A stretch of 60,655 nucleotides of DNA, filler included, from Basidioascus undulatus (Eukaryota), in NCBI GenBank assembly GCA_000826855.1. It is 8 parts of 8 records of this genome, joined end to end, with 100 filler letters (N's around TTAATTAATTAA, not from the genome) between each part and the next. Parts side by side here need not be neighbours in the genome. Positions count along the whole stretch, not along the records: positions 10,019 to 14,909 come from JTLS01002049.1; 7 more parts are not named here. One strand, 5' to 3'. Shown here piece after piece: positions 4,914 to 55,783 of the stretch (its first letter is position 1; each line of letters opens with the position of its first letter). The translations under genes and the position numbers were made by a program. A model generated the notes under the pieces. The model saw only the letters and a program-made list of their open reading frames with translations, had not been told where the DNA came from and did no database searches.

Positions 4914-5013
4914 NNNNNNNNNNNNNNNNNNNNNNNNNNNNNNNNNNNNNNNNNNNNTTAATTAATTAANNNNNNNNNNNNNNNNNNNNNNNNNNNNNNN
5001 NNNNNNNNNNNNN
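4914..5013. other. Artificial contig spacer N44-TTAATTAATTAA-N44
   Basis: Exactly 100 bp with a central 12-mer that gives stops in all six frames; identical at all seven gaps. Confidence 0.98.
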
Positions 5014-5589: not shown

Positions 5590-5858
5590 GCCGCGCGGCT
5601 CATGCAATGCATTCACAGGACTTTCACGTAACGTTGCGCTTCTTAAGAGTATGCGTGTTGAATGAGCAGAAACAAATCAACAGACTGCGCAGAAGTCTAG
5701 ACAGCGGGACGAGTGCGGGTATCGGTGTTTACAAGGACAGCCCGATAGCGGCGACAGACACGAGAACGGAAGCGCGTGGGACCAATATGAGCAATTGAAT
5801 GGAGATAAGAAAAAGCAAGGACGCCAAGTGGCGAGGAAAGTGGAAGACCCGTCACGTT

Positions 5859-8800
5859 CTAGACGGTCGAGACGATCCTGCAGTAAGAGCACCGCCGATG
5901 AGCCAAATCCGTCGATCCGTGCGAAAGAAGTTGAAACAAACGGGATGGACACGCACTCGTCCGCCCGGTTGAGCGCCTCGACCATCTTGATACACTCCTT
6001 GCGGCGCTGGACGACAAAGTCGCTTTCTTTCATGAGGTCGTCGAGCACGTCGGCCTTGTAGAGCTCCTGCAGCAGCTCCCGCTGGAGGTTCTCCTTCGAG
6101 TGGTTGACGAGAGTGTACGAGATCGCCTTGGGCACCATGTCGATCATCTCGCGCTTGACGATGTTAAAGTAGGACGTGATCAGAAGCTCTGTGGGAAGGG
6201 AGACTTGTCGGCACCGGACCGAGATATCAATCAGGCGCCACACGCACTGATAACCTCCGTTTCCAGCGTTTCCCGGTCGCTCAGAGCCGCTTGCGGACGG
6301 ATCTGCGCGGGAGGCTGAAAAATAGAAAATAGGAGCATGTCAGTCCCGACTCGCCGGCAGAAAGACCAGACGCGAACGACGGACCGCCTCCATGACCGGC
6401 CCACCCTTCTTCTTCGCGGTGCCCTTGGCAGAGAAGAAGCTGCCGAAGAAGCTGGGCTCCTCCTTCTTGATCTCGACGTCCAGGTCGCGGTTGTTGTTGA
6501 TGGCGCCCGGCGCGAGCTTGCCGCTCTTAGGGTCGGTCGCGGGCGGGGGCGGCTTCGCGACGTTCAGGCGGTCGGTCACGATAGCCATGGCCTGCGAGAA
6601 GCGCGCTGCCGCATCAGCATCGTTCGCTGCTGAGAGACAAGAGCGAGAAAGCGGGTACCTTGTGGCCGTTCAGGAAGTCGGGGTGGGTGGTGTTGATGTA
6701 GCAGGCTTGCATGCTGTTCAAGGACGAGCGTGGTCAGCAAACTGGAGAAGGGCGACGCAAGTTGCAGCGGCTTACCTGACCATGTCGGTAACCAGCTTCT
6801 GCGTCGGGTCCATTGCGCGCTTGAAGAACGCGATGACGACCGAGTTGAAGCGATCCTTCAGCGCGGGGTAGCGCTTGAAGGCTTGCTGTGAACGTTCACG
6901 AGCGGGCGTCAGATACAGCCTCATGCTAGAGATTAGCCAAGCGACGCACGATCTTCGACAAGAGCTGCGCCAATATCCGGATGAGCTCGTCGTAGACCAG
7001 GTGGGTGCACTTGATCGAGGGGTCCTCGAGGCGGCGGATCTGCTGCTTGACGATGACCTCGAACGCAGTCGTCCCGACGAAGAGGGAAGGAGTAGATCCC
7101 TGCAACACAGCGGTTAGCATGGGCAGTCCGCGGCATGTGACAGAACGGAGATGAGCCGCACGGAAGAGTTGTACAGGATCGTCCGGATGTCGCCGTCCTT
7201 GACCTGGTCGAAGGGGTCGATGGACTTGATGCCGTTGTTGAAGAGCTCGTGGAAGACAAAGCTGATGCGAGCACCGCCCGAGAGCTCGTTGAGCGACAGG
7301 TCGTGCGTGTTACCATCGATCACCGTCCGGAACTCGTTCGTGAACTCCGTGATGACAGCGAGAACGACGTTGCCCTGCGCAGAGACGCCGGAGTCAGCAT
7401 GCTAGCTGTTGAAAACGGTCTGGATCGGTACGTACCCCATTGTTCTCGCCCTGGGCGCCACCGAGCGATTGAAGCTCCGCGTTGAACTTTGCGAGCGAGC
7501 TGGAGATCTTGGCCTTGATGTCGGGGAGGGTGGACTTGATGTGATGCATGAGGATCTTGGGCAAGGAAAGCGCAAAGTTAGCATCGCCCCTTTCACGTCC
7601 CCCGCCATTCGGAGCGCACCATGTTCAGCTTGCGAGACAGGAACGGCGTGCCGCAGTACTGCGCCTTGCTCCGGTAGCTCGGGTGGTTCTCGAAGTACTG
7701 GCGCTCCGACTCGAGCGCAGCCGAGATAGCCCGCTTCTGCTCGATGTCGCGCTGGCCGCGGTTGACAACGGGGACGTAGCCGAGACGGAGAGGGATGACA
7801 CGACCGGCGAGAATGTCGACGACGTCCGTGCCCTGGTCCATCAGGTCGACCTTGGTCAGGACACCGATAGTCCGGGTACCTGCAGTTCGCGCCCACTCCC
7901 AAGTCAGCTTTACATGAGCGTGTTCCCTGACCAGCCACAACGCACCCTCCGGGTCCACCTCCCGCGCCAGCTTCAGACCATCAGAGTTCGCCAAGTCGGT
8001 GTTCGCCGCGGTGACGGCAAGAATGATCGCGTTCGGCTTGCTGATGTACTTGTAGAGCATGTCGCGGATCTGCCGCTCGATATCTCGGGGCTGATCGCCG
8101 ACGGGGACCTGAACAGCCCAGCGAAGGTGAGTGCTGAACTCCCAAGCAAGCATCAAGCCAGATTGCGTGCGCACCTTGGTAAGGCCCGGCAGGTCGACGA
8201 GGGTGAGGGTGAGGACATTCGGGGAGTAGATGCGAAGGTTGATGGGGAGAGGAGAGATGCCTATCCAGAGCCCGCATGAGCACACCGCGTTCTGTCCTCC
8301 AGCTTCCTCCAGCACGGTGGCCACACTGCCACTCACCAGCATTCTTGCCAGTCTTCGCCTCCGTGTCCCGCACAATCTCGTCACGAATCTTGTCGAAGTC
8401 GTGGAACTTCTCGCCAGGGAGATGAAGGAACTCGCCCCACTCGTCCGGGTTGCTCTCGTTTGTCCGGGTAGCTGTGTACCACACAGACACGCGCGTCAGT
8501 GCCTTCCCGCGACCAGTGCCAGCGCGAGCGCGGGAAGACCGCACCAGGAGTCTCCGCACCGTCAACAACACCGTTCGAAGCGCCCGACCTTGGCCGGTTG
8601 ATCAGTTGAAGAACCTACACAGAAAAATATCAACTTCGCCATCAGTCCTAGCTCCAGGAGGCGAACGAAGGCCGGCGGTGGCGTACAAGGGGACGGCGGG
8701 TGACGATGCCGGTTCCACGGGGAAGGAAGTCACGCCCGACCTGCAACCCTCCAGTTCAGTCCATGCATCTTTAGGCATCCAGATGCATAATGGAACTCAC

Positions 8801-9158
8801 GATGTTCTGCCAATTCCCATTCGCCATAGGCCCAAGCCCGCATCAGTTCCGCCCCTGCCGACACAGCCTCAGACCAGACCGCTTCCAAACCCACCTCCAG
8901 CACCGACGACTTGCCGCTGTACCACCACAAAGTCAGATTGTTAGATATCCACTTCTCGCGCCCAGGGAAGCTGGCTGCGCACCTTGACTGCGAGCCGATA
9001 ACGGTGATCTGCGGCAGATCAATGGGGTTGGCGATGCCGACGTTGGCGAAGGCATCCTAGAAGCGGTCCCAGCTGACCATCAGCGTCCGGAACAAGGGCA
9101 CACGGATTGATGTCTTTACCTGCAGCTTGTTGACGATGCCGATGATCTGCTTGTCCAT
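5859..9158 (-). CDS. VPS1: Dynamin-related GTPase Vps1, multi-exon, complete
   Basis: Starts [16 protein letters not shown]...[41 protein letters not shown]. Contains [70 protein letters not shown] and [25 protein letters not shown]. Ends ADEIVSTV* (TAG 5859-5861). The GHKAMAIV and FFGSFF segments favour Vps1 over Dnm1. Confidence 0.95.
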
Positions 9159-9670
9159 GATGCCGACCGAGCAAGTAGACGAGCGCGGGGGTGGGTCGGG
9201 TGCTGGCGCGGCAGGGAGATTGCGAGTGAGTACGCGCCTCATAGGCACCGAGGACCTCTTCTGCACAAGCGGTGTCTTACTATAAATGTACGTGAATTGG
9301 TCGTATGCGACGCTGGTACGGAAACGAGCGAGCGAGAATGCGAGGCGTGATGAAGGTCGAGGGTAAGGTGCGATCCGCACACGCGCGCGACTGAGTGCCA
9401 CGCTCAGGCGGGCCGTCGTCGCAGCTGCGGTTCCAATGCGGTTCAGTTTGAGCGGACGCTTTCAGGGCAGCGCTAGCAGACCCGTCCTGCTCACATTCAT
9501 GCTTCAGGTGCAGTTCATGAATACTGTCGCCAACTGTCGCACACGCTTGTTGCATACGAGTATAAAATATCGCCCTGCCTCGCCTTAATCATACATCGTA
9601 ACGTAGTCGAATGGTCTGAAAGCGCAAGAAGATGCTCTGCCCGTCCCACCCATACCGACCCCTCAAACGC

Positions 9671-9918: not shown

Positions 9919-10018
9919 NNNNNNNNNNNNNNNNNNNNNNNNNNNNNNNNNNNNNNNNNNNNTTAATTAATTAANNNNNNNNNNNNNNNNNNNNNNNNNN
10001 NNNNNNNNNNNNNNNNNN
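9919..10018. other. Artificial contig spacer
   Basis: N44-TTAATTAATTAA-N44. Confidence 0.98.
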
Positions 10019-10069
10019 ACGCGTAGCGGATGGGGCGGAGGTGGGAGATCGGCGAGGGAGGGGCGACAG

Positions 10070-12090
10070 ATGGTTCCCTGGTCCGCTGATCAAGAGCGTG
10101 TTTGGCGAGCCGACGGGGACGAGCGCAAAGTTCGCGAGCATGATGAAGGCTAGTGTGTGGGAGTACTTGTGAGTCCATTCCCCCCTCCCCCTTCTTTCTC
10201 TTCTTTGGGAGGGTGGCTGAGTGTTGGATGGATGCAGTGTGGAGAAGCACGGCCTCCAGCTGGACAAGATCACGGCGATGCCGCTCGAGGGGGAGGGCAA
10301 GGTCGAGGACCGCGTGGACAAGCTTTATCGGCAGCTGCTGGGGAGGAAGGAATGGATACAGGTATGTCGGGTTGCGCGCGGTCGGGGAAGGGGAAGAAGA
10401 AGCTGATGGGGATTGTCTGGGGGAATAGGATCTCTATGAGGCAGACGTCGTGTTCGTCGCTACCCACTCGCAGGGCACAGTCGCCTCCACGGTGAGTGAA
10501 ATCCCATGTGCCCTGAGCACACGAAAGAGCGCACGCGGCTTAACCCTCCATGCACCAGATGCTCCTCCAGCGCCTAATCGAGCAAGGGCACGTCCGCACG
10601 CGTGCCTTCCCCTCGGGCACGGAGCCCTACGTCCCCCCCACCCCCATCTCCCTCGGCTCCTCCACCACCTCCTCCTTCCGCCGCACCGCCTCCACTTCCT
10701 ACCCCACGCCCCTCCGCGGCGAGCAGCGCATCGCGCTCCTCGCCATGTGCGGCATCTCGGGCGGCCCGCACGCGTACCTCGGCTCCAGCGGCGTCGGCAC
10801 GTACTTGCAATACTTCGAAACAGCTGCGGCGAGGGAGTTGTTTGAATTCCAGGTGCGTTCGCTTTGCTGGGGAGGGGGGATGGAGGGAAGGGAAACTGAG
10901 GTGAGGGTGCGGTGCGGTGTTGGGGGATCCAGGACACCCAGAGCGCGCCGGCGAGGAAGTACGAGAGTGCGCTGAGGAGGGTGCTGGACCATGGGGTCAA
11001 AGCGAGTGCGTTGCGCGTTGTTTGGGCCGATAGAAGAAACACTCGAGAGCATGCCTAATCGTATGGGCACGGTACAGTCTACGTTGCGGGCGTCGCGGAC
11101 CAAGTCGTCCCCATCTACTCGGCGCTCAACTTGCACAGCCATCACCCTAACATCCACCGCCATCTGTACATCGATGGGCATGCGTGCGTCTTGCGGCTTG
11201 AAGGAAAATGGCAGGGCAGGACGGGGCGCAGTGCTGATGTGGAGAGATGGGGAACAGGTACCGCTCGAGCGACTTTTTGACCAACTTGCTTGTGTTCGCG
11301 ACGAACCTGCGAAACGCCGTGAGCCCTCCTCGAGGGCGGTTTGATAAAGCGGATAGATAGCTAACGGTGAAATGGGTGTGGAATGGCAGGGCATCGACGA
11401 CGACGGGCTGATCGTGCACCTCTCGGAGCCGATGGCGGGCGCGCTGACGGGCATGGGCCACTCGACGGTGTACGAGGAGCGCGGCGTGTATGACCTCGCG
11501 TGCCGCACGCTCTTCGAGACGACGGGCCCGATCCACACGCCGGAGGCAGCGGCCGCAGCGGAGGACGGGAAGCCCGTGCCGAGCCTGCGCGTCGAGCCGT
11601 TCCATGCGCTCGAGCCGAGGAGCGAGTTCGCGCTGCCGTGGGTGCGTTCGGGGTGCTTCCTCTCTTTGTGTTGGGAGAGCTGGGTACTGAGGGAGGTCAG
11701 GGTGGTGGGGCGAAGATTCTTCGTGGGATTCTGGAGAACCCGGACGTGCAGGAGCTGTTTGGCGGGGACTTGCAGGAGCTCCGGGAGGGGTTCGACCACT
11801 GGCACCCCCAGACCAAGCCGCTCAAGTGCGTTGCATTCTTTTCAATCACTTCGCCCAAGCCAGCGTTTTCTCACCCGCCGCACTCGCACAGAGACGTCCG
11901 CAAGAAGCTCGAGCCCCTCGCGTTGCGCCGGCGCAAGGTCTCATCCACCGGCGGCGGGGGCGTCACGGCGTCCTCCTCGCCTGTACTTCCCACTCCTGCG
12001 ACCCCCAAGACTGTTAAGAGTCCAAAGTCGGGGGCGTGGACGTCCCAGACACAGAAGGGCGGCGGCGGGAGCGGGCCATCCAAGTTGTAG
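10070..12090 (+). CDS. YML020W-like alpha/beta-hydrolase-fold protein (5' end lost at gap), ends in SKL
   Basis: Spliced motifs WFPGPLIKSVFGEPTGTSAKFASM, PLEGEGKVEDRV, VFVATHSQG (nucleophile elbow), AARELFEFQ, DQVVPIYSA, LIVHLSEPMAGALTGMGHSTVYEE and WHPQTKPLKDVRKKLEPL, matching the yeast YML020W family as I recall it. Stop TAG 12088-12090. Confidence 0.85.
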
Positions 12091-13313
12091 ATTTCGCTGC
12101 AGCGTTTCTGCCCTTCCTCCTTCGTCTTCGCCTTTTTTTTCCTTCTTGATCTCATTGTGCCATGCCCTCCTCCCTCCTTCCTCTGCATTTATCTCACATC
12201 ACAAACACATATACCCGACGCTTCGCGCCCCACGCCTTCGACTTTCAACACTACACTTCACCGCATATGGCTTGCTCGTGTTTCCTCTATTTTCTTTTGT
12301 ATCGCGCCTTACGTCTTCACGCACCCTACACGACCAAGCATCACCAAACCGAACTGTACTGTAGAATGCACACCGATATGCTCGTTGTTTGATCTGCCCA
12401 CGTGCTGGTGCGAACAGATGTGCCCGAGGACAAGGAGAATTACTGGTCCAAACATATGACATGGTGTGACTCTCGAGGTGACGAAGGCGGGAGAGGAGCT
12501 CTGGTACACAAACGAGCGGACGGACGAAGACAATTAGAGACCGTGCGCTCTTGTCATGGCATATGCTCTACTATCAGAATGCTGCAAGACAAATTGTAAG
12601 ACAAAGCAAATGAGACAGCAGGCAACAAAACACATCAACTTGACTGCGTGCCAGGTCCAATCCAGGGGAAGATCGGCGACAAACGCGGCCGGCGGACCAG
12701 TCGCGCTGTGTTGTATCCTTGTGGACGAGCTGGAGGAAGAGCTGAGGGAAGCGATAGAGCGCGTGAAATTGAAGGCTAATAATCCATCTGTACAAGTTCC
12801 CCCTCGCACAGACATCCAGAATTTCCCTCGATGCAGACATCCGCTGGAAGCTGTGAGTGACAAGCGTTCGTAGGCCGCAGGTGAGCTCAATGGCGCCTGA
12901 CTACTTGTAGGGTGCCTTCACCATATTATTTTTTGTAGAACTTCCTAAATTATAGGGATCACGACTCAGAGTGGGACATGGTTGTGAGGTCTGTCACAGC
13001 ATCGTGCAAAGGCTGCGTCGGCGCCGATGTTGAACACCATGCCTGACTTTCTTGCCAGCCCGTTGCATCCATTTCGTGATGGCTTTTGCTACGGTTCAAA
13101 TTCAAATGTTGGATGTAGCAGCCACAAGCGGTGTGGCGGTCGAGCACATAGTGCGTGCCATTCCTCCCTCCCCATCCGATTTCGCACGTCCTCGCAGCTC
13201 CCAGCGCTCGTTCTCCCCCCTCTCTCACTCTCACTCTCGCCACTCGCCTCGCCCTCTCTGCCTCACCCTCGTAAACTTACAGTCACCTCCTCAAGATCCA
13301 TCATATGGACACA

Positions 13314-13581
13314 GGGTGCCTCTGCGGACCATTCAGGCCCTGCGCATTTCGTTCTGTTCTTCGGTGCCTCCGCGCACTCCATCCATCCTTCTTCTCCGTC
13401 CTGGGTGCCTCTGCGCACTTCAGCTCTTGCTCGTCTAGGAAATTTCTCGTCCTCAACCCCACAGAGGAGGATTCCTCTTCCACCCGAGTGCCTCTGCGCA
13501 CTCGTTTGGCTTTCTTTTGTGGTGCCTCTGCGCACAACGTTGCTCTTATTCCCCTCCTTCTGCGGGTGCCTCGGTGTACTC
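13314..13581 (+). repeat. Array of six 15-nt repeats (consensus GGTGCCTCTGCGCAC) with unique pyrimidine-rich spacers; each copy can form a small hairpin
   Basis: Copies start at 13315, 13363, 13404, 13487, 13521 and 13565, with a degenerate half copy near 13336. Core GTGC-6 nt-GCAC is self-complementary. Confidence 0.85.
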
Positions 13582-13859
13582 CATTTTCTTAGCCCAACCT
13601 CCCACCCCCCCTTCTCGCGCACAGCGCACCTGACTGGCACTCCCCTCCTCAGGCGTTTACCTCAGCGCTGCGATCCGTTCCTCAAGATCGACTGGTTCTG
13701 CATTCACGCAAAAGGCGCTAACGAACTTGTGCATCAGCGCATCAGAAATGACACTGGCATAAGAAATTGGGCAGGGCCGACTGCGCCGTTGCTCGCCAGT
13801 GACGGTCCTTCCTCAACGCAAAGGGGGCAGCGGACCTCCAGGTCGTCGCCACCACCGCC

Positions 13860-14200
13860 CCAAACCTTAGACTTTCTTCCTTTCCTAGAAAGACTCAGAC
13901 ACAATAGCACCCTAGGAACTTTCAAACAGAACACACTGCAGGGGGCCCGTTCCGCACTCTTTGATCCACTGCCCTCTCCACCCACTTACAGAGTTGGACT
14001 GCGCCCCCATGACGACCTCTGGAGACTCCAGCAGCGCTTGTGCATGATTTCTTCCCTCAGCTGTAAAATGTATCGACAGCACTGACCATGGATCCCACAT
14101 TGTGTTGGGCATTACTTTCTTTCGCGCCATGCAGACTTCTTCGAATCTGGGAAGCATGCAGGCTGCCTCGTTCCTCGTAATCCTCTGAATCCTGGATCCG
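13860..14200 (+). mobile_element. Possible degenerate retrotransposon gag relic
   Basis: Frame-hopping translation NTLQGARSALFDPLPSPPTY...HDDLWRLQQR / VHDFFPQL*NVSTALTMDP / VGHYFLRAMQ loosely resembles the Retrotrans_gag pattern. It has stops and frameshifts, and no pol domains are seen. Confidence 0.3.
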
Positions 14201-14471
14201 TCGACAATGGACGTGAGCCGACAAATGTCCTCTTCCCACTCGAACCCCAAGCGTGCGGCAAGAAACGCGCAGTAGGTACTGGCAGGCGGCCGCAACGGTG
14301 CCGGCTGTGAATGTCCGGCAAACATCCAGGGCGACCCGGTTGGAGTACGCTGGACGTGTGTGTAGCTCGCGCGACGGCCGCAATCGGAGCAGGCTAGGAA
14401 GCTGAAACACCGAAAATCTGATCGTCATGTCGTATGCTGTACATACAGTGCCCTCCCCCTCTCCTCCCCTC

Positions 14472-14909
14472 CTAGTTCCTAGGTCTCCACCGCACCCCAA
14501 CAAACGCCGCCGTCCCCACACACACAGCCGCAAAGACCCAGAACACCCTCCCCTCTCCCTCGCCTGGGGCTTTCCGGAGCGCATCGCGCAGGGGGAAGAA
14601 CAGCGCGCCGACGGCGAGGTTTGCCGCCCAGTTGAGAGCGAGGGCGAGGGAGGCGAGGGCACCCGCCAGAGCCGGATCCGGAGCGGGGTCGGCATGCGCG
14701 TGTCGGGAGGGGGAGGAGGAAGAGGGAATGGGGGAGGAGGGAGGAAGGAGCGTGGGGAGGATGAGGAAAGGCAGCGGGCCGAGGCCGACGGCGAAGGAGG
14801 TTACGAAGAGGAGGATTGTTATGCCGGAGAGGAGCGTGAGGTGTGACGAGAGGGAGATTGAGAGGAGGGAGGAGGATAGGGCTAGCCCCGCGAGGGAGAG
14901 CAAGGTCCA
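14472..14909 (-). CDS. C-terminal part of an MFS sugar porter (Vps73/YBR241C-like), 5' lost at gap
   Basis: ILLFVTSFAVGLGPLPFLILP...ALASLALALNWAANLAVGALFFPLRDAL...VFWVFAAVC corresponds to TM10-12 of the sugar porter family. Stop 14472-14474. Confidence 0.85.
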   Translation of the reverse strand, partial: WTLLSLAGLALSSSLLSISLSSHLTLLSGITILLFVTSFAVGLGPLPFLILPTLLPPSSPIPSSSSPSRHAHADPAPDPALAGALASLALALNWAANLAVGALFFPLRDALRKAPGEGEGRVFWVFAAVCVGTAAFVGVRWRPRN

Positions 14910-15009
14910 NNNNNNNNNNNNNNNNNNNNNNNNNNNNNNNNNNNNNNNNNNNNTTAATTAATTAANNNNNNNNNNNNNNNNNNNNNNNNNNNNNNNNNNN
15001 NNNNNNNNN
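14910..15009. other. Artificial contig spacer
   Basis: N44-TTAATTAATTAA-N44. Confidence 0.98.
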
Positions 15010-16336: not shown

Positions 16337-16437
16337 GGCTTGATGGTCTAGTCGTATGATTTTCCCTTCGGGTTACCCCCGTGCAAGCATTTGCATCTAA
16401 TTGGGAGAGGTCCCGGGTTCAATTCCCGGTCAGGCCC
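16337..16437 (+). tRNA. tRNA-Pro(CGG) with a 29-nt intron (16373-16401) at the canonical 37/38 position
   Basis: Acceptor stem GGCTTGA/TCAGGCC, anticodon stem TTCCC/GGGAG with loop TT-CGG-G (anticodon 16369-16371), T arm CCGGG-TTCAATT-CCCGG, oligo-T Pol III terminator immediately downstream. Confidence 0.93.
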
Positions 16438-18547
16438 CTTTTTGCGTTGCTCTTTGTTTGACAGCTCCAGCGTCGCCCCAGCCTGCACAGTTGGGAGACA
16501 TTACCTTCTGCAACTACAACTCAGACCGTTCTTGTCCTGCATGCAAAGTATGGACATTCAAGACTCAGTGCACTCTTCCAATTTCGTTGAGGATCGCAGA
16601 CACTCAGCGGTAGCTCGCTGTAGCTCCAGCAACCCTTGGATACAATACGACCGTGTAATCAAGGAAAATAGAAAGCAAACCGCGTGTTTGAGCAGTCTTG
16701 CAAGAACGAAAGCTGCACATGGTGAAAGGGTGGGCGCCATCAGATATCAGATGTTGTCGGTCCTGCTGATCTTGAAAAGAACCCCCGCATCGAGCACTTG
16801 ATTTGCACACCACGGCCCGCTTCCTGAACATCTGCAAGTCAATGAGCACAAAAATACGCCTCGCTCCAGAAATTCTGCTCAAAAGCATACACGTCGATTG
16901 CAGTCCACCCGGGTCTTTCTTGACATCCGTTTCGCTCGGCTCTCTGACAAGCATGTATTCTCGCTGCACCTTGAGGAAATACATATGGCCGCCCCCTTTG
17001 TTTGGCCTTGAATATTGGGTTTGGACACGAACTACGTGCATCCGCAAGCATCCGAGCTGCATTCGCATCTGCCTATTTCACGGGCCACTCTGCTGCCTGA
17101 CTGCTCCCTCCGCTCTCCCTTTGCGACATGTCTGATCCCTCGAAGCTTCCAGATTCCTCTTCGGTCCTGATGTAACACTACCCTTATCCGTCAGCCAAAT
17201 ATTCCGTCATTTACACGTTCACTGGCATGAGGAGACGTGGCAAGGACGTCTGCTGTCGTGCGCCGCCCAGGACGGCGGATGCTGGTTTCCCAACCACCAG
17301 ATTGGCGTGGGTCACAAGAGTAATGAGGGATACGGAGCTACAACCGACTACGCGCGTACGCTCTCAAGTATCGGCACTGCGACGGCCTAAAAGGATCTCC
17401 GAGCCCAGACGCTCAGAGAGTTTCCGGACGCAAACGCGGTGATTGCCGTGACCTTGGAAACGGCCATGAGCGCCGTGCATCTGCATAGCGGCAACGTCAT
17501 TTATGTGCGGTCCTGGGTCGCGTCAGGGATACCAGTCTATCTCGAGGAGACCCCGGAGGTGCGTGCCTCCGCTGCCTTCCTATCATCCTTCGCCTCGGGA
17601 ATCCTACTCAATAGGATGCGCACCCGACATGGCTTCGCAGACTCTCCTGCGGCGAGCAAGGTAACGATGGTGCCCCAAGGACCACCGGCGGCGGTAGGTG
17701 CATAGGGCTTAGGGCTGGAGATGGGAACGAATTGGCTGAGGGTCGTTGTATGCATTCCCATGCACCCGGCTGCCGGGCGCATATGCAATCAAAAGCCTAT
17801 AGGGACGAAAGCGCTCGCTACCCACTCTTCAAGAGCCGTGGAGACTGCAAGCTCAAAATCTTTAGTCAACGCGATGGCGATTTCAGGTCACGCGAGCAGA
17901 GTTAGAAGCTGAACATCATAGGGAGCGAAGGCGAGCGGCTTTAATGAAACGCGCGAGGCGAGAATGAAGCAAGAGATGGCCGTCGAGGACCGAATGGGGG
18001 CGAGCGACGAGTAACGGAGGCTCAGGATCGGGATGAGGTGACCTGATGAGGACGACCCGTGCCGTCGAGGGACGGCGAGACTAGTTAGTGGGGAAGTGAG
18101 GGTGTAGGAGTACCATCGCGCTGGGGCTACGGACGGCGGCTAGTTCAGGGTCGGTGACGTCAGGGGGAACCGAAGGCTCGCGGTCCCAGGCCGCACTTCC
18201 GCGGGATGAGAGAGTGAGCGTGGAGTGAGCGAACGAGCGAAAGCCACGGGTGACGACGAGTAGGAGTTAGGATCAGGATGGGGTGAGCTGAACGGAAAAG
18301 GGGTGCACTGGAGGGTGTGCGATCGTGAGCAAAAGGGTGGCAGAGTGATGGTGGTGTGGGTGGCGGAGCAGTTGAAAGCGCACGGAGAAAACGGGCGGGG
18401 TGTGCACAGGCCCTGTCGACTTCGCACAAGCGCTCGCGGACGTACAGGCCCTCGAGTATAGAGACGCGCAGATATGGCAGCAAAAGACGAAAAACCTCGT
18501 ACACAGCCTGCCCTTCCTACCACTGCTCACTCCCAACCTCCCGCACT

Positions 18548-19902
18548 CTAAACGCTCTGCGCCGGCCCCAAGCCGCTCCCAAAGCCCTTCAGCAACCCAG
18601 CAGTGGCCTGCTCCCCGAGCCGCTTCGTCTCCCCATCCAGCTGGCCGAGCAGGAGCATGCTCTGGAGCCTGCTCGGCTCCTGGGGCAGGCGGAACTGGCG
18701 CACGATCTCCTGCTCCGTAAGCGGCTTCAGGCCCTGCGCGGCGCGCTGGGCGTTCTCGCGCTGGACGCCGTGGTCCGCGCGGGCGCGCTCGCGCGCGAGC
18801 TGCCGCTGCTGGAACGCGACGGTCGCCTGCTCGTCCTTGTATGCGTCGAGGGAGGCGAGAACGGAGGAAACGGAGGACTCGAGGGTGGAGGAGAGGGACA
18901 GGTCGAGGGAGGTGTACGTTTGGGTGAGGGGCGCGGCGGTGGTGGGAGCAGTGGGGGAGGGGGAGGAGACGGTGGAAAGGAAGGCGGAGGCGAGGGAGGA
19001 GGTGTGGATGGTCAGGGGGTAGGGGACGAGGATGGACGAGAACGTGAGCGAGTGGTCGACCAGCGAGGAGGTGCTGAAGTTTGCTTTGCGGAAGGCATCC
19101 GCGAAGGACGGGGAGAGGCGGAAGGCGCGCAGGTTCGCGTTGCCCGCGTCGGAGGAGGAGGTGTCTTGAGAGGCAGAGAGGGAGAAAGGTTTAGTGACGA
19201 AGCATTAGGCGAGCGAGAGGCGGACGCACCATGCACAACAACGAACCCCCTGTTCTTGCCCATGTTGACGAGCAGGGGCACGTTCGCGAACAGGCTCTCG
19301 TTCAAGAACGCGCCGAGGCGGGCCGAGACGTACACGCCGACGACCTGGTCGTCGCCGCCGACGTCGCGGAGGAGGCGGAGCATGGTCGCGTTGTATTTGG
19401 CGCGCGCGGCCTTGCTCTTCTTGTCGTCGTCCTCGGATGTCTGCGCGGACGCGGGAGGGAAGGGCAGCGACGGGTAGCTGTTGGAGATCTCCAGGACGCT
19501 GTTGATGTCCAGCCCGAGGAGCTGGCCCGAGACGGGCGCGGGGGAGAAGTCGCGCGCGTGCTTGAGGATCTTGGAGACCACCTGAGGGGAGAGGAGGGGA
19601 GTCGGTAAATGGGAGTGGGAGGGGTGGGAGCTGGAAGGAAGACGCACCATCGCGTCGACCTGGACAGTGTGCACCGGCACGACGTTCTCGATGTCCACAG
19701 CGGACGCGCTGTTCCCATCCCAATCCCATACCAGTCAGCTCCCGCCCACTCATCCTCGCATGCAGCAGCGCCACGGAAAGACGGACAGGGACGCAGGGAT
19801 CTTGATCTGCTCCTGGGGCGTCTGTACGCCCTCGGAGGGGGTGGGGGTCGCCGCGGCCTGGCGGGCGGCGAGCATGGCAGCGAGGTTGCTGGAGGTCGCC
19901 AT
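18548..19902 (-). CDS. eif3h: Translation initiation factor eIF3 subunit H (MPN domain), multi-exon, complete
   Basis: MATSSNLAAML..., VQVDAMVVSKILKHARD...VSGQLLGLD...LEISNSY, YNATMLRLLRDVGGDDQVVGVY, GFVVVHD...LRAFRLSPSF and C-terminal ENAQRAAQGLKPL...LPQEPSRLQSMLLLGQLD. TAG 18548-18550. Confidence 0.92.
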
Positions 19903-20200
19903 TTTTGTGGAGTGCGGATGGGGAGGAAAGAGAGGACGACAGGAGGCAACGGCGAGCGCGACGTGGGCAACGGCGAAGACTGGGAAAATGGTGGCAGGCC
20001 TCGAGCAGCCCTACCGGACTTGCTGGATTCAATGTCGGCGATAGCGAGGCACGAAGGCGCTCAGGCGCGTGCAGCTCGCCTGAGTGCCTCGAAGCTCATC
20101 AGGCCATCTCGACAGCTGTTCGCTGTCTTTCTTTCCCTTTATCGCCATTTGCCACACCAACACACACTCTTTTACCGGTATACCCACACACACAGCAACC
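19903..20200. promoter_or_regulatory. Probable bidirectional promoter between eIF3h and IDI1
   Basis: Only 298 bp separate the two divergent ATGs; pyrimidine-rich leaders face each gene. Confidence 0.6.
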
Positions 20201-21330
<1,130 letters not shown>

Positions 21331-32718: not shown

Positions 32719-35700
32719 TCACGAGGCGACGACAGCGAACAGCTCCCCCCCCTCCTTCCTCAGCGCCTCCACAAACTGCTCCCCGATCCGCTTCTTCCCT
32801 CTTGCCCGCTTCTTCCCTATCCTAACCGCCTCAACATCCTCTAAGCGACTGAGCACCTCCCGCGCTCGCTCCTTGACCGTCCTCCCTTCATCTGCGCCGC
32901 TTAACCGCCGCTCCCATCGCTCTGCCATACCCAGCGCGCCCACCGCCACACGCCGGAGGGTCTCCGTGCTCGTTCCGTGCGCAGCGGGCTGCAAGAGCGT
33001 CTCAGCAATGGTCGAGCGCAGAAAGTGCTCCAGGAGAGTGGAAATGGGTGCATAGGGCAAAGTTGATGGTGAGGCGAGGAGCGCGGAGAGAAGAGGCGCG
33101 GCGTGCGGAGGCAAGGAGGCGAGGTAGGATGAGAGTGCGCGCGGACCGAGAGCGGAGAGGGCTGGGCGGATCGAGAGGAGGCGGTTGAGGTGTTGAGGCA
33201 TGGGGGAGGCGAGGGCGAGCTCGACGGTTGTGCGCATGGTTTCTTCCCAGGAGGCGGAGCGCTGTTCAGCTGCGGAAGGCAGAGAGGCTGCAGCCGCAAG
33301 GTCAGCTACGTGAACGCGATGAACAGCTCATGAATCAAAATGGGCACACCCTCGCCATTCGCGCCACCCCCGCCGACGCTCCGCTCCTCCAGCGCCTTGC
33401 GTACGCCCTGCGCATCGAACGCCGTGCCCTGGATGACGATGCCGAGCGCACGGTCGCTGAGAAGCCGGAACAGGCTGCCGCGCACAAGTTCGAGCACAGC
33501 AGGCGGGCAGGACGTGGGAAGGATGAGGCTCTGGAGCGTTTCGAGGTGGACCGTCGCAAAAAGACTGTTGAAGAAGGCCGGCGGGGTCAGTTCTGTCAGG
33601 GTGATGACAGTTGAAACGATTGGGCGCACCCTTGACGGGGAATCTCGGCACAGAGCCACTCGATCACGCCCGTCAACGTCCAGCTCAGAAGATCCTGGTT
33701 GAAGTAGCTGCATGCCAATGAGATGAGCGTGAGTGAGCCATGTTCGGCGTGAGGTTGTGGTGCGGACGCGGTTTACCTCAAACCGCCTTGCATCGTATCC
33801 ATATCGATATGGCGCATGGAGCACGCCAAGATGCTCTGCGCAAAGAGCGTCGGCGCAAGCCTTAGAAGATCCGCAGGCTTGGTCGTCCTGGTCAAGTGTG
33901 TCCCATCTTGAACTCAGCATCTTGTGCGGTAAAGAATCGGAAGGCTGGCGGACGCACCTGAGCGCCTCATCGGAGATCCCCTCGCTGCCGAAAAGCGCCG
34001 TGACCCACGTGCCGACTAGCTCGCGATCCGCAGGGAAGAGCTCCGAAAGAGTGTGCGCGAGCGAGGACGCCGAGTAGAAACGGGTGTCGGCGAGGTGGTG
34101 CTTGAGCTGCAAGCAATGCGTATGGGTCCGTCAGTACATCAAGACACGTCAAGAGGGAGTAGACATGAGATGGGAGTAGACGCACCTGATACCGCTGCAG
34201 CACGAGTTGGTGAAAGAGCGTAACGGTGCCGAACTGCGAGTATCCAGACTGCGCGTCACCTGTTCGCCGACGCGGATGAGCACAACCTAGACGGGCGAAG
34301 ACGGCAAAAGAATGCAGACGAGCCATGATGGTCAGACAAGTTGAACGACTGCACGAACGCGTGAAGAGCGTCCAGGAACGGCGTTGCCTCTGCGTACAGA
34401 AGCGCTATGTCAAGTGCCGCGGGCCGGGCGGTGAGAGCTGAAGCAATGTGCGCGAGGGGATCGAGATCATGCGAAGACGCGAGAGACTCAATGCGCTGGT
34501 TCACATACGAAGCGTCAGTATCGCTGAAAGGTGTGTCTAGCGTGAAATAGCGGCAGACTTTGAAGAGGACAGAAGAGAAGGCTGGGTGAGAAGCAATCGA
34601 GGGGAGGAGACGGTCGAGGAAGAGCTGGACGTCTTCAGGTGCGGAGTCCAGCGAGAGCTGCGCTTCGATGTACGCCTAATTCAAGAGAAAGAAAGGCGAT
34701 GAGCAAGGCCAACGAGATGATAGGGGACAGCTCAAAGCGCACCTGCGGAGAGGAGCCTGCAGCCTGAGCTAGCTCCTCGATCGCGTCCGCTGCGCCTGCG
34801 CCGCCTTCAAGTTCGGCGTCGATGGGGAGGAGGTCTGCGCTTCGAAAAGAACGCAGTACGGCAGATCGGAGAGACGGGAACCTGGCCCATGTAACGTTGT
34901 TAGTCTGTGCTTTCGGTTGTGCAGAACGGGTTTGGGCGCACGAGAGGGTTTCGGCGGACGAGGCGGGATCTGAGCTGAGCATGGCGATGGTTGGAGAGGA
35001 GTCGAGCTGAGACGCGAGTTCCGCTTCCGAGAGTAGTGCGGACAGCGCGGTGTGATGTTGATCAGGCTGCAACGAGAAAAGGGTGAGCCGCTCGCTCCGC
35101 AGAGCACAACGGTGCAAGTTTCGCACATGCAGTTCCGGAATTGCCGCAAGAAGTCCCGCTACCTGATCACACCCCGCGAATGTCAGTCTGCAGGCGTCGT
35201 TCGAGATGAGGTGAACCCGGGACAAGGATGTACCCGCTGCCCGATGAAGGAACGCCAGACGAGCCACTCGCGCTCGCTGCGCCGCATCTTGATGGGGTCG
35301 AGCGCCTCCGGCTGTTTGAGAGAGGACAGAACGCCCAGCGCGGCGCGTAGGATCGTCTCGCTAAACGCGGCTGCGGGGGCGTGCGCCCACCCGTCCAGGG
35401 CGGCTCTCAGCCGAGCGACCGCGGCTGGAGTGCAGCCCCCGCCCAGCGGCGTGGCTCGATCTTGGACCTGTAGGAAACGCCCTGTGAGGTTTTCGTGGGC
35501 AGGTATGTAGAAGTTTGCGGACTTGCCAGTTGGCGGATCAGCAGCTGAACCTCAGCGTCGTGCAGTTCCCTCGGAGGCGGCGCCTGCTCAGTCTCGGCTG
35601 GCGGCTCAGACGGGAAGCCGGGCGGCGGGGTAGGGTCGACAGGGGTGAAGGGCTCTGCAAAGATGGTTGCGAGCAGGCCGAGGTTGACCTTGAGGTCTTC

Positions 35701-40767: not shown

Positions 40768-40867
40768 NNNNNNNNNNNNNNNNNNNNNNNNNNNNNNNNN
40801 NNNNNNNNNNNTTAATTAATTAANNNNNNNNNNNNNNNNNNNNNNNNNNNNNNNNNNNNNNNNNNNN
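40768..40867. other. Artificial contig spacer
   Basis: N44-TTAATTAATTAA-N44. Confidence 0.98.
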
Positions 40868-45756: not shown

Positions 45757-45856
45757 NNNNNNNNNNNNNNNNNNNNNNNNNNNNNNNNNNNNNNNNNNNN
45801 TTAATTAATTAANNNNNNNNNNNNNNNNNNNNNNNNNNNNNNNNNNNNNNNNNNNN
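45757..45856. other. Artificial contig spacer
   Basis: N44-TTAATTAATTAA-N44. Confidence 0.98.
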
Positions 45857-48800: not shown

Positions 48801-49964
48801 GTGGGGAGGACGTCGCTTGTTCATGAATATGCATTCATGACTTCATCCCATGCCTTCAAACTTTTAATCAGCGTTTGGCTTTTGCATCCCGATTCTGCAG
48901 AGCGTCTAGCACTCGCCCAAGTGTGAACAACGGTGTCTCACGCCTAAACATAACGTCGTCTCGTTTTCTACCCATCACACCAACCTTGATATGGCCATGG
49001 AGTGCTCCCTTCCAGAAACAAAATTAAGCATAACAAACAGGCGCACTGTATCGAACTCATCATGATCAGACAGCCTTGTCGTTTGCTTGCCCACTGCCTG
49101 ACCCTCATCGACCATTCCCACCTCGCTCAGGCCAAGCAATTCAAAAGCAAGCAAAAGCAAGGCAAAAGAATTGTACGCCCCAAAAACCTCAGGCTCAATG
49201 AAGCAGAAGGAATGCTTGAACCGTGAATCGAACACGGGGCGGGTCGAAACGTCGGATGGCAACGACCCAGGTTACCACTACCCCACCCAAGCTTGTCCTA
49301 TGAATCTTTCCCATCACCTTTGAGTTCGTGGAATTGTCCTTTATTGTCCTGTTGTTATCTCAATTCCGTGACAGAGTTTCTTGATTCGTGGAAGAATATG
49401 AGGAGGCTAGCCACCAAGAGAGACCCAAGTGCAGCGGTCAGATGGGAGTCGCACCGGGCCGAGGCTAACGCACCCACTTCGAGAGTGCAGTTGAGACTGC
49501 CCGAGTGCGCCGTCTGCACGGATCAGATTAGCTCAGAGTGCGTAAAACTCTCAGAGGTGCCCACCCACCGCGGCCTCTGCGACGATCCGGACGGCTGTAG
49601 CTCAAGAGCCCGTCCGGCAGCATGCGTCCAAAGCCGCTGCAATACAATCAACGACGACCTTCCTCCCTAATAAGTAAAGGAGTTTGCTGACGACTGCGAC
49701 TGCCACTCGCACTGCATCTCCCACTCCCCCCGCCCTATCCCCCAACTGCCTCCGTGACCGCCGCGAACAAAAGAGAAGCCCAAAAGAACAGTATCAATGC
49801 ACCATCATAATTTGTGGGAGTCACAACAAGCACGCCCCAGAAGCGCGGAGGAATCAAAAAGAGAAAGAAGAAAATGGGCGAGAACCCAGAACCCCCTATG
49901 CGTGACCACACCCGCCTGCACCCACACCGCACCGGCCCTAGGGAAGGGGACAGGGCGGGGAAGG

Positions 49965-50698: not shown

Positions 50699-50798
50699 NN
50701 NNNNNNNNNNNNNNNNNNNNNNNNNNNNNNNNNNNNNNNNNNTTAATTAATTAANNNNNNNNNNNNNNNNNNNNNNNNNNNNNNNNNNNNNNNNNNNN
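50699..50798. other. Artificial contig spacer
   Basis: N44-TTAATTAATTAA-N44. Confidence 0.98.
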
Positions 50799-55683: not shown

Positions 55684-55783
55684 NNNNNNNNNNNNNNNNN
55701 NNNNNNNNNNNNNNNNNNNNNNNNNNNTTAATTAATTAANNNNNNNNNNNNNNNNNNNNNNNNNNNNNNNNNNNNNNNNNNNN
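55684..55783. other. Artificial contig spacer
   Basis: N44-TTAATTAATTAA-N44. Confidence 0.98.

Follow-up and report, generated by a model that had tools for sequence, protein, structure and literature searches.

The window analysed here is a stretch of 60,655 nucleotides from Basidioascus undulatus, made up of separate contig pieces joined by N44-TTAATTAATTAA-N44 linkers (4914-5013, 9919-10018, 14910-15009, 40768-40867, 45757-45856, 50699-50798 and 55684-55783); adjacency across these linkers is artificial. The piece that bears the array of repeated units described below spans positions 10019-14909. The array lies within a gene-free gap of 2.4 kb between two convergent genes. The main features of the locus are:

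10019-12090, + strand: left neighbour, a multi-exon protein gene that faces the array, with its stop at 12090 and an mRNA contig ending at 12352.
12988-14085, + strand: stop-free frame of 365 codons running through the array, probably the gag relic of the initial annotation; an open reading frame with no protein signs.
13140-13186, + strand: upstream module common to other loci, defined by contig matches; candidate promoter or 5' end.
13160-13300, + strand: C/T-rich, unstructured leader, defined from sequence (fold z -0.18).
14472-14909, - strand: 3' end of the right neighbour, a sugar transporter (MFS; PF00083, E 3.3e-08) that faces the array, with an mRNA contig ending at 14410.

Nine GT..AG joints of the left gene are present in sequencing run X3, and the codons of the gene score as coding; no Pfam family above cut-off was found when its exons were scanned. 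Since both flanking genes converge, no neighbour promoter is expected in the gap. The CpG ratio at the locus is 0.76-0.89, compared with 0.91-1.03 elsewhere, without the depletion that marks silenced transposon relics. Elsewhere in the window are two genes that we take, from their translations, to encode a dynamin-like (Vps1-like) protein (5677-9276, -) and an eIF3h-like translation factor (18548-20060, -). An isopentenyl-diphosphate isomerase-like sequence lies at 20344-21330 (+), the best fungal hits of its exon showing 77-81% identity and coming mostly from Ustilaginomycotina; none is a close relative, and the placement inferred from them goes no further than the basidiomycetes. Two intron-containing tRNA genes, tRNA-Pro(CGG) at 16337-16438 (+) and tRNA-Gly(GCC) at 49213-49292 (-), were found only with the intron option of ARAGORN.

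A unit search with GGTGCCTCTGCGCAC bore out the six 15-nt units of the initial annotation and their start-to-start spacings of 48, 41, 83, 34 and 44. The units and their partial or degenerate relatives are:

13315-13329, + strand: unit 1, a GGAC variant whose core stem is broken.
13339-13346, + strand: half unit within spacer 1, comprising the 3' half; seen in the sequence, with TGCGCA at 13341.
13363-13377, + strand: unit 2, a loop variant.
13404-13418, + strand: unit 3, exact.
13487-13501, + strand: unit 4, with a perfect 7-bp stem.
13521-13535, + strand: unit 5, exact; three other contigs match units 4 and 5 together.
13565-13579, + strand: unit 6, with three mismatches and two G-U pairs on the + strand.
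13729-13742, + strand: possible seventh, degenerate unit, its stem kept with a G-U pair; a post hoc pick that may be due to chance.

The units starting at 13315, 13363, 13404, 13487, 13521 and 13565 carry 1, 1, 0, 1, 0 and 3 mismatches to GGTGCCTCTGCGCAC, respectively, two of the six being exact copies. All six share one orientation, and their consensus is a 14-nt unit, GTGC-CTCNGY-GCAC. The cluster size of six compares with a maximum of four in 100 dinucleotide shuffles of 13150-13660, and the window has no second cluster of degenerate 14-mers; a lone unit match at 34383 is the number expected by chance. The spacers are C/T-rich (63-85% pyrimidine, 19-68 nt long) and the units fall in differing frames, in agreement with the earlier description of pyrimidine-rich spacers and of a repeat that is not a protein repeat. 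A contig of run X2 covering 10637-14852 differs from the window at a single position, 11569, outside the array, which argues against an assembly error, but X2 may itself be the source of the window. Three small features were also observed around the units. On either side of the array lies one copy of an exact 11-bp direct repeat (about 13288-13298 and 13679-13689, 390 bp apart), which does not mark the limits of the region common to the other loci and may be due to chance. A hairpin with a 6-bp stem lies at 13121-13137, directly upstream of the shared module, and another, with a 6-bp stem and a 4-nt loop, lies at 13463-13478 within the long spacer 3.

Run X3 is labelled 'DNA?' and skips the nine GT..AG introns of the left gene; it is thus RNA-derived. 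One of its contigs falls on the array, and two candidate splice signals surround it:

13250-13464, strand not readable from the contigs: X3 contig of 215 nt over units 1-3, unspliced and with no differences.
13151-13156, + strand: GTGCGT, candidate splice-donor motif; the commonest donor here and the only one on the + strand of the 2.4-kb gap.
13630-13652, + strand: candidate acceptor with a branch-site-like CTGAC, a pyrimidine tract and CAG; one of five such sites on the + strand of the gap.

The 215-nt contig is separate from the mRNA contigs of both neighbours and stops short of units 4-6 and of the module. The array appears to be copied into RNA, on the evidence of one low-depth contig from one sample over units 1-3, for which genomic carry-over is possible. 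The transcription expected from the initial annotation is in this respect supported by one RNA-derived contig, from which neither strand nor ends nor level can be read. X3 cover is absent over 12479-13134 and 13627-14282, an absence that by itself proves nothing.

We aligned the contigs of genome runs X1 and X2 and of run X3 to the array piece. Because X1 and X2 possibly stem from a single strain, which may also have supplied the window, they are counted here as one line of evidence. At least five other contigs in each of X1 and X2 carry the upstream module or the unit pair. Among the matches listed, the module is matched by two contigs in each run, one over 13140-13186 at 41 of 47 positions (six differences), the other over 13141-13257 in a gapped alignment with 15 differences and 11 gap letters. 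Units 4 and 5 (13487-13535) are matched by three of the contigs listed, with 5-8 differences. One of these three also has a 25-letter match ending at 13170, which links module and units at a second locus. The shared module lies about 130 nt upstream of the array, with matches of 25-47 nt; by chance, a genome would be expected to contain about 1e-10 such module matches and 0.026 unit pairs. The family is read from five contigs, short low-complexity chance matches in the same table having been left aside. At the contig ends, one sister locus shows an extra unit before the pair and another an extra unit after it, and the spacers of the sister loci differ in register from those of the array. One sister spacer equals window spacer 2 at 10 of 11 letters and is preceded by the loop variant seen in unit 2. 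With up to one mismatch allowed, the window has 12 occurrences of this 11-mer, so the likeness is only a hint of whole-array duplication. Judged from these alignments, the array is a member of a dispersed family with a common upstream module and not a one-off, which is the main point that we add to the initial annotation.

Two-unit patterns were also searched in other collections. In viral contigs they returned 0 and 1 stretches, the one being a plain duplication. In metagenomes they returned 13 stretches, of which eight are ordinary tandem repeats or duplications and five belong to one unrelated transcript family. A blastn comparison of the collected stretches with the 2.4-kb gap gave two unit-length matches only, both to stretch L001, and the upstream module has no exact match in the viral and prokaryote collections. 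A GC-rich metagenome family (L005, L007, L009, L010 and L012; in L007 at 731-1004) has six to seven GTGC-6-GCAC units at irregular spacing. One of these units has both stem arms changed, and the units surround a duplicated, hairpin-like segment of 90 nt. Blastn does not connect this family to the window, Rfam gave nothing for the three members scanned, and the family may be an independent hairpin array.

No frame between 12110 and 14390 scores as coding under a codon model built from exons of this organism, in keeping with the non-coding reading proposed earlier. The 365-codon frame scores -0.68 bits per codon with a GC3 of 0.58, compared with +0.36 and +0.14 for two held-out genes. It found no homologue among 1.84 billion representatives save one weak low-complexity hit, nothing in two word-based searches and no usable hit in Atlas (best 0.77). 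Its single-sequence structure prediction was uninformative (pLDDT 35). A Pfam scan of 48 frames gave the neighbouring transporter as the sole family above cut-off, and zinc-knuckle, protease, RT and integrase motifs are absent from the gap. The frame has no homologue, Pfam hit above cut-off, retroelement motif or host codon bias, and its description as a gag-like relic is not supported; gag/ORF1 and pol remains were likewise not found downstream of the array at this locus. A stop-free run of 365 codons was reached by 2 of 500 block shuffles. The frame is thus longer than chance, which counts against a purely non-coding reading, and it is possibly an orphan or relic frame. Among element structures that were considered, a solo LTR, a Helitron and a TIR element fail on inspection and repeat search. 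A TGTTGG..CCAACC pair (about 13108/13594) falls beyond the region that the loci share, and its flanks do not match. As to Helitron ends, the shared region begins with TC but after a G, and the contig matches share no 3' end.

The initial annotation had each copy folding as GUGC, a 6-nt loop and GCAC. Taken alone, four of the six copies give such a hairpin, whereas copy 1 carries GGAC and a G.G mismatch; the sequence does contain the stems that had been described for copies 3, 4 and 6. When the array is folded as a whole, copy 4 is the only one to form its own hairpin. Compared with shuffles, the whole array shows no better folding on the + strand (z -1.38) and slightly better folding on the - strand (z -2.22); the stretch 13440-13559 gives z -2.46 and z -2.56, respectively. 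The four core pairs are Watson-Crick in 22 of 24 cases over the six copies, the departures being a G-U on the + strand in copy 6, from a C-to-T change, and the G.G in copy 1. The three flank pairs comprise A-U, G-C, C-G, U-A and G-U types and are Watson-Crick in 8 of 18 cases, against 5.0 expected (p 0.05). Variation had been said to tend to preserve pairing on the + strand. This is reflected in the 83% of cells that are paired there, compared with 71% on the - strand, but the covariation is borderline (p about 0.03-0.18) in a test that comprises six copies and three flank columns only. On the + strand, four of five pairing measures were reached by 14-28 of 500 shuffles and the fifth by 95 of 500; on the - strand, each measure was reached by 58-98 of 500. 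The permutation test gave p 0.05 with Watson-Crick rules, 0.08 with RNA rules and 0.18 with energies, and pair counts spanned 0.05-0.25.

The tolerance of G-U pairs was earlier taken to point to an RNA structure. The two core substitutions do not establish this, one being kept as G-U and the other breaking the pair. C-to-T changes are the commonest class of mutation. A C-to-T bias is also described for fungal repeats in the part of PMC3318451 drawn on here, so that the apparent G-U tolerance is possible without selection, although CpG is not depleted at this locus. Conservation of the loop is about equal to that of the stem, which a DNA site would explain equally well. Taken together, the RNA-hairpin reading is slightly favoured over the DNA reading. 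Rfam gave no match over the array at E values up to 5, and none at gathering score in the window.

The array and its sister loci probably make up a small family of non-coding elements, each of which would bind a protein repeatedly. The explanation that we tentatively prefer, with less than even confidence, is a dispersed, lineage-specific family of non-coding RNAs acting as a multivalent protein dock. We prefer it because the sister loci carry the module and the unit pair, because the units are kept while the spacers are unalignable, because the RNA-derived contig is separate from both neighbour mRNAs, and because pairing is better on the + strand and CpG is not depleted. The family would be small and old, comprising this locus and at least five others, and each locus would consist of a conserved 5' module of 25-47 nt, a leader rich in C and T, and a series of 14-nt units set in drifting pyrimidine-rich linkers. 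Transcription would proceed on the + strand from the module or the leader. Each unit is predicted to form a short hairpin with a CUCNGY loop between single-stranded linkers, and one RNA-binding protein would occupy several units together, making the RNA a decoy or a scaffold comparable to CsrB or meiRNA. The copies may have arisen by whole-element duplication, after which selection would have held the units and the module while the linkers drifted. A more specific version is possible though doubtful: the loci would encode eukaryotic, multi-locus hairpin-array RNAs, by analogy a counterpart of the CsrB-type sponge, that titrate or assemble an RNA-binding protein and are perhaps freed from a long intron, or else processed into small RNAs by cleavage at the hairpins.

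The same observations may be read in other ways. The array could be the 5' end of a transposable element, either the promoter, leader or packaging hairpins of a retrotransposon or the subterminal repeats of a DNA transposon, with a body that is decayed, replaced or novel. The dispersed copies start at nearly the same base (13140 and 13141), as element ends do, they are followed at this locus by a frame of 365 codons with non-host codon use that is longer than chance, and the sister spacer resembling spacer 2 (10/11) fits the copying of a whole element. We nevertheless consider this rather doubtful: searches of the gap gave no homologue apart from one low-complexity hit, no Pfam family above cut-off and no retroelement motif, neither terminal inverted repeats nor an LTR pair could be made out convincingly, the piece has no long direct repeat, and CpG is not depleted. 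No other X1 contig covers 13627-14446, a hole that alone proves nothing, and a dead element should decay evenly and not retain its units while losing its spacers. Such retention of the units is also what speaks against a neutral, decayed minisatellite spread by old duplications, in which gene conversion or slippage would give the appearance of unit conservation. Such an origin would fit with irregular spacing, with the half unit found in spacer 1 and with low-level transcription, and the 19 bases preceding each unit are slightly more alike than in shuffles (p 0.085). The spacers themselves, however, are no more alike than shuffles (summed score p 0.70, with none of the 15 pairs below p 0.08), while the units differ on average at 1 position in 15. 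Head-to-tail units alignable along their full length, as in a minisatellite, are not seen in the array, Tandem Repeats Finder at score 30 does not list it, and the upstream module conserved along with it is not repetitive. Mutually alignable spacers had been named as the sign of a decayed minisatellite; they proved unalignable, and a simple minisatellite of this kind is very unlikely.

The units might instead act as DNA, as a cluster of sites for a dimeric protein recognising the GTGC-N6-GCAC dyad in a promoter, enhancer, insulator or chromosome-maintenance element, with the RNA as a by-product. The core is a DNA dyad with a loop conserved as sequence, the C/T-rich flanks pair with G by chance under RNA rules, and over 13440-13559 the + strand folds no better than the - strand. 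Flank pairing, on the other hand, leans towards copy-specific compensation, which a DNA site does not need, there is no downstream coding gene to regulate, and all units face one way; we regard this explanation as unlikely. Splice signals raise a further alternative, in which the donor at 13151 and the acceptor at 13652 would enclose the array in a 502-nt intron, belonging to a non-coding or unrecognised transcript and resembling an introner-like element or a stable intron RNA; in a variant of this idea, the units are hairpin-masked alternative donors with one common acceptor. The module holds the sole GTGCGT donor on the + strand of the gap, this motif starts five of the nine proven introns, a branch site, pyrimidine tract and CAG follow about 50-75 nt past unit 6, and an excised intron would account for the isolated RNA contig. 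Against this, X3 contigs show no splice joint at 13151 or 13652, the proven introns are 66-80 nt long and none of the nine starts with GTGCCT. In addition, homology already begins about 10 nt before the donor, joining the flanks yields no coding frame, and the terminal inverted repeats of fungal introner-like elements, as given in the part of PMC8469720 drawn on here, are lacking; an intron-borne array is thus quite unlikely. Finally, the repeat-spacer layout, the hairpin-capable repeats, the leader-like module and the presence of several loci recall a CRISPR-like precursor cut at its hairpins into guide RNAs from unique spacers. This we hold to be highly improbable, the spacers being 19-68 nt long, C/T-rich and of low complexity, with no effector gene nearby and no Rfam match; one spacer, moreover, was apparently inherited between loci and not newly acquired, a weak point.

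Comparison with known systems places the array among several types of repeated elements. The monomers of mouse L1 are repeats of a retrotransposon 5' leader, and CACTA and hAT transposons have subterminal repeats. As in these, the dispersed copies have a common 5' start followed by repeated motifs; unlike them, the array locus yielded no coding body, terminal repeat or target-site duplication. If the array is instead a transposon leader, it would mark an element family without recognisable protein relatives. The iron-responsive element, the U1A site, the Smaug element and copper- or metal-response elements do not fit on inspection. CsrB/CsrC and RsmY/RsmZ are bacterial protein-sequestering RNAs whose GGA loops are bound by CsrA. 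The array, like decoy RNAs, has many copies of a conserved motif with variable linkers, and by analogy it would resemble the CsrB and RsmY types in having many short hairpins with conserved loops, variable single-stranded linkers and several paralogous genes per genome. It differs from them in its CUCNGY loop and conserved stem sequence, and a decoy role is proposed here by analogy.

Among fungal systems, the array is, like the motifs of Li and Breaker 2017 (PMC5640933), a candidate structured non-coding RNA; the main text of that paper does not contain 'tandem', 'repeat' or 'Basidiomycota'. The portion of a 2025 review of fungal lncRNAs drawn on here (PMC12566771) describes nothing like the array family. 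More generally, the literature searches brought up no fungal family of non-coding RNAs with hairpin arrays at several loci, and the letters of the unit are absent from the papers searched. The array is real, dispersed and non-coding, and probably transcribed, and no described family was found for it. The introner-like elements and sister stwintrons (PMC8469720) are likewise dispersed, related and structured elements that bear splice signals. They are functional introns in genes, with terminal inverted repeats of 45-55 nt in stwintrons, whereas the array is intergenic, has internal direct repeats and shows no splicing in X3. The meiRNA (sme2) of fission yeast, as the part of PMC4077057 drawn on here describes it, is a decoy of Mmi1 with the hexamer motif UNAAAC, encoded at a single locus. 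Like meiRNA, the array would be a fungal long non-coding RNA with many copies of one short protein-binding motif, the binding being predicted for the array; it differs in that its unit is a 14-nt dyad present at several loci, with no link to meiosis. If the RNA family is real, its unit would provide a defined 14-nt bait for discovering a new RNA-binding specificity, and a eukaryote would have built the bacterial sponge-RNA design independently.
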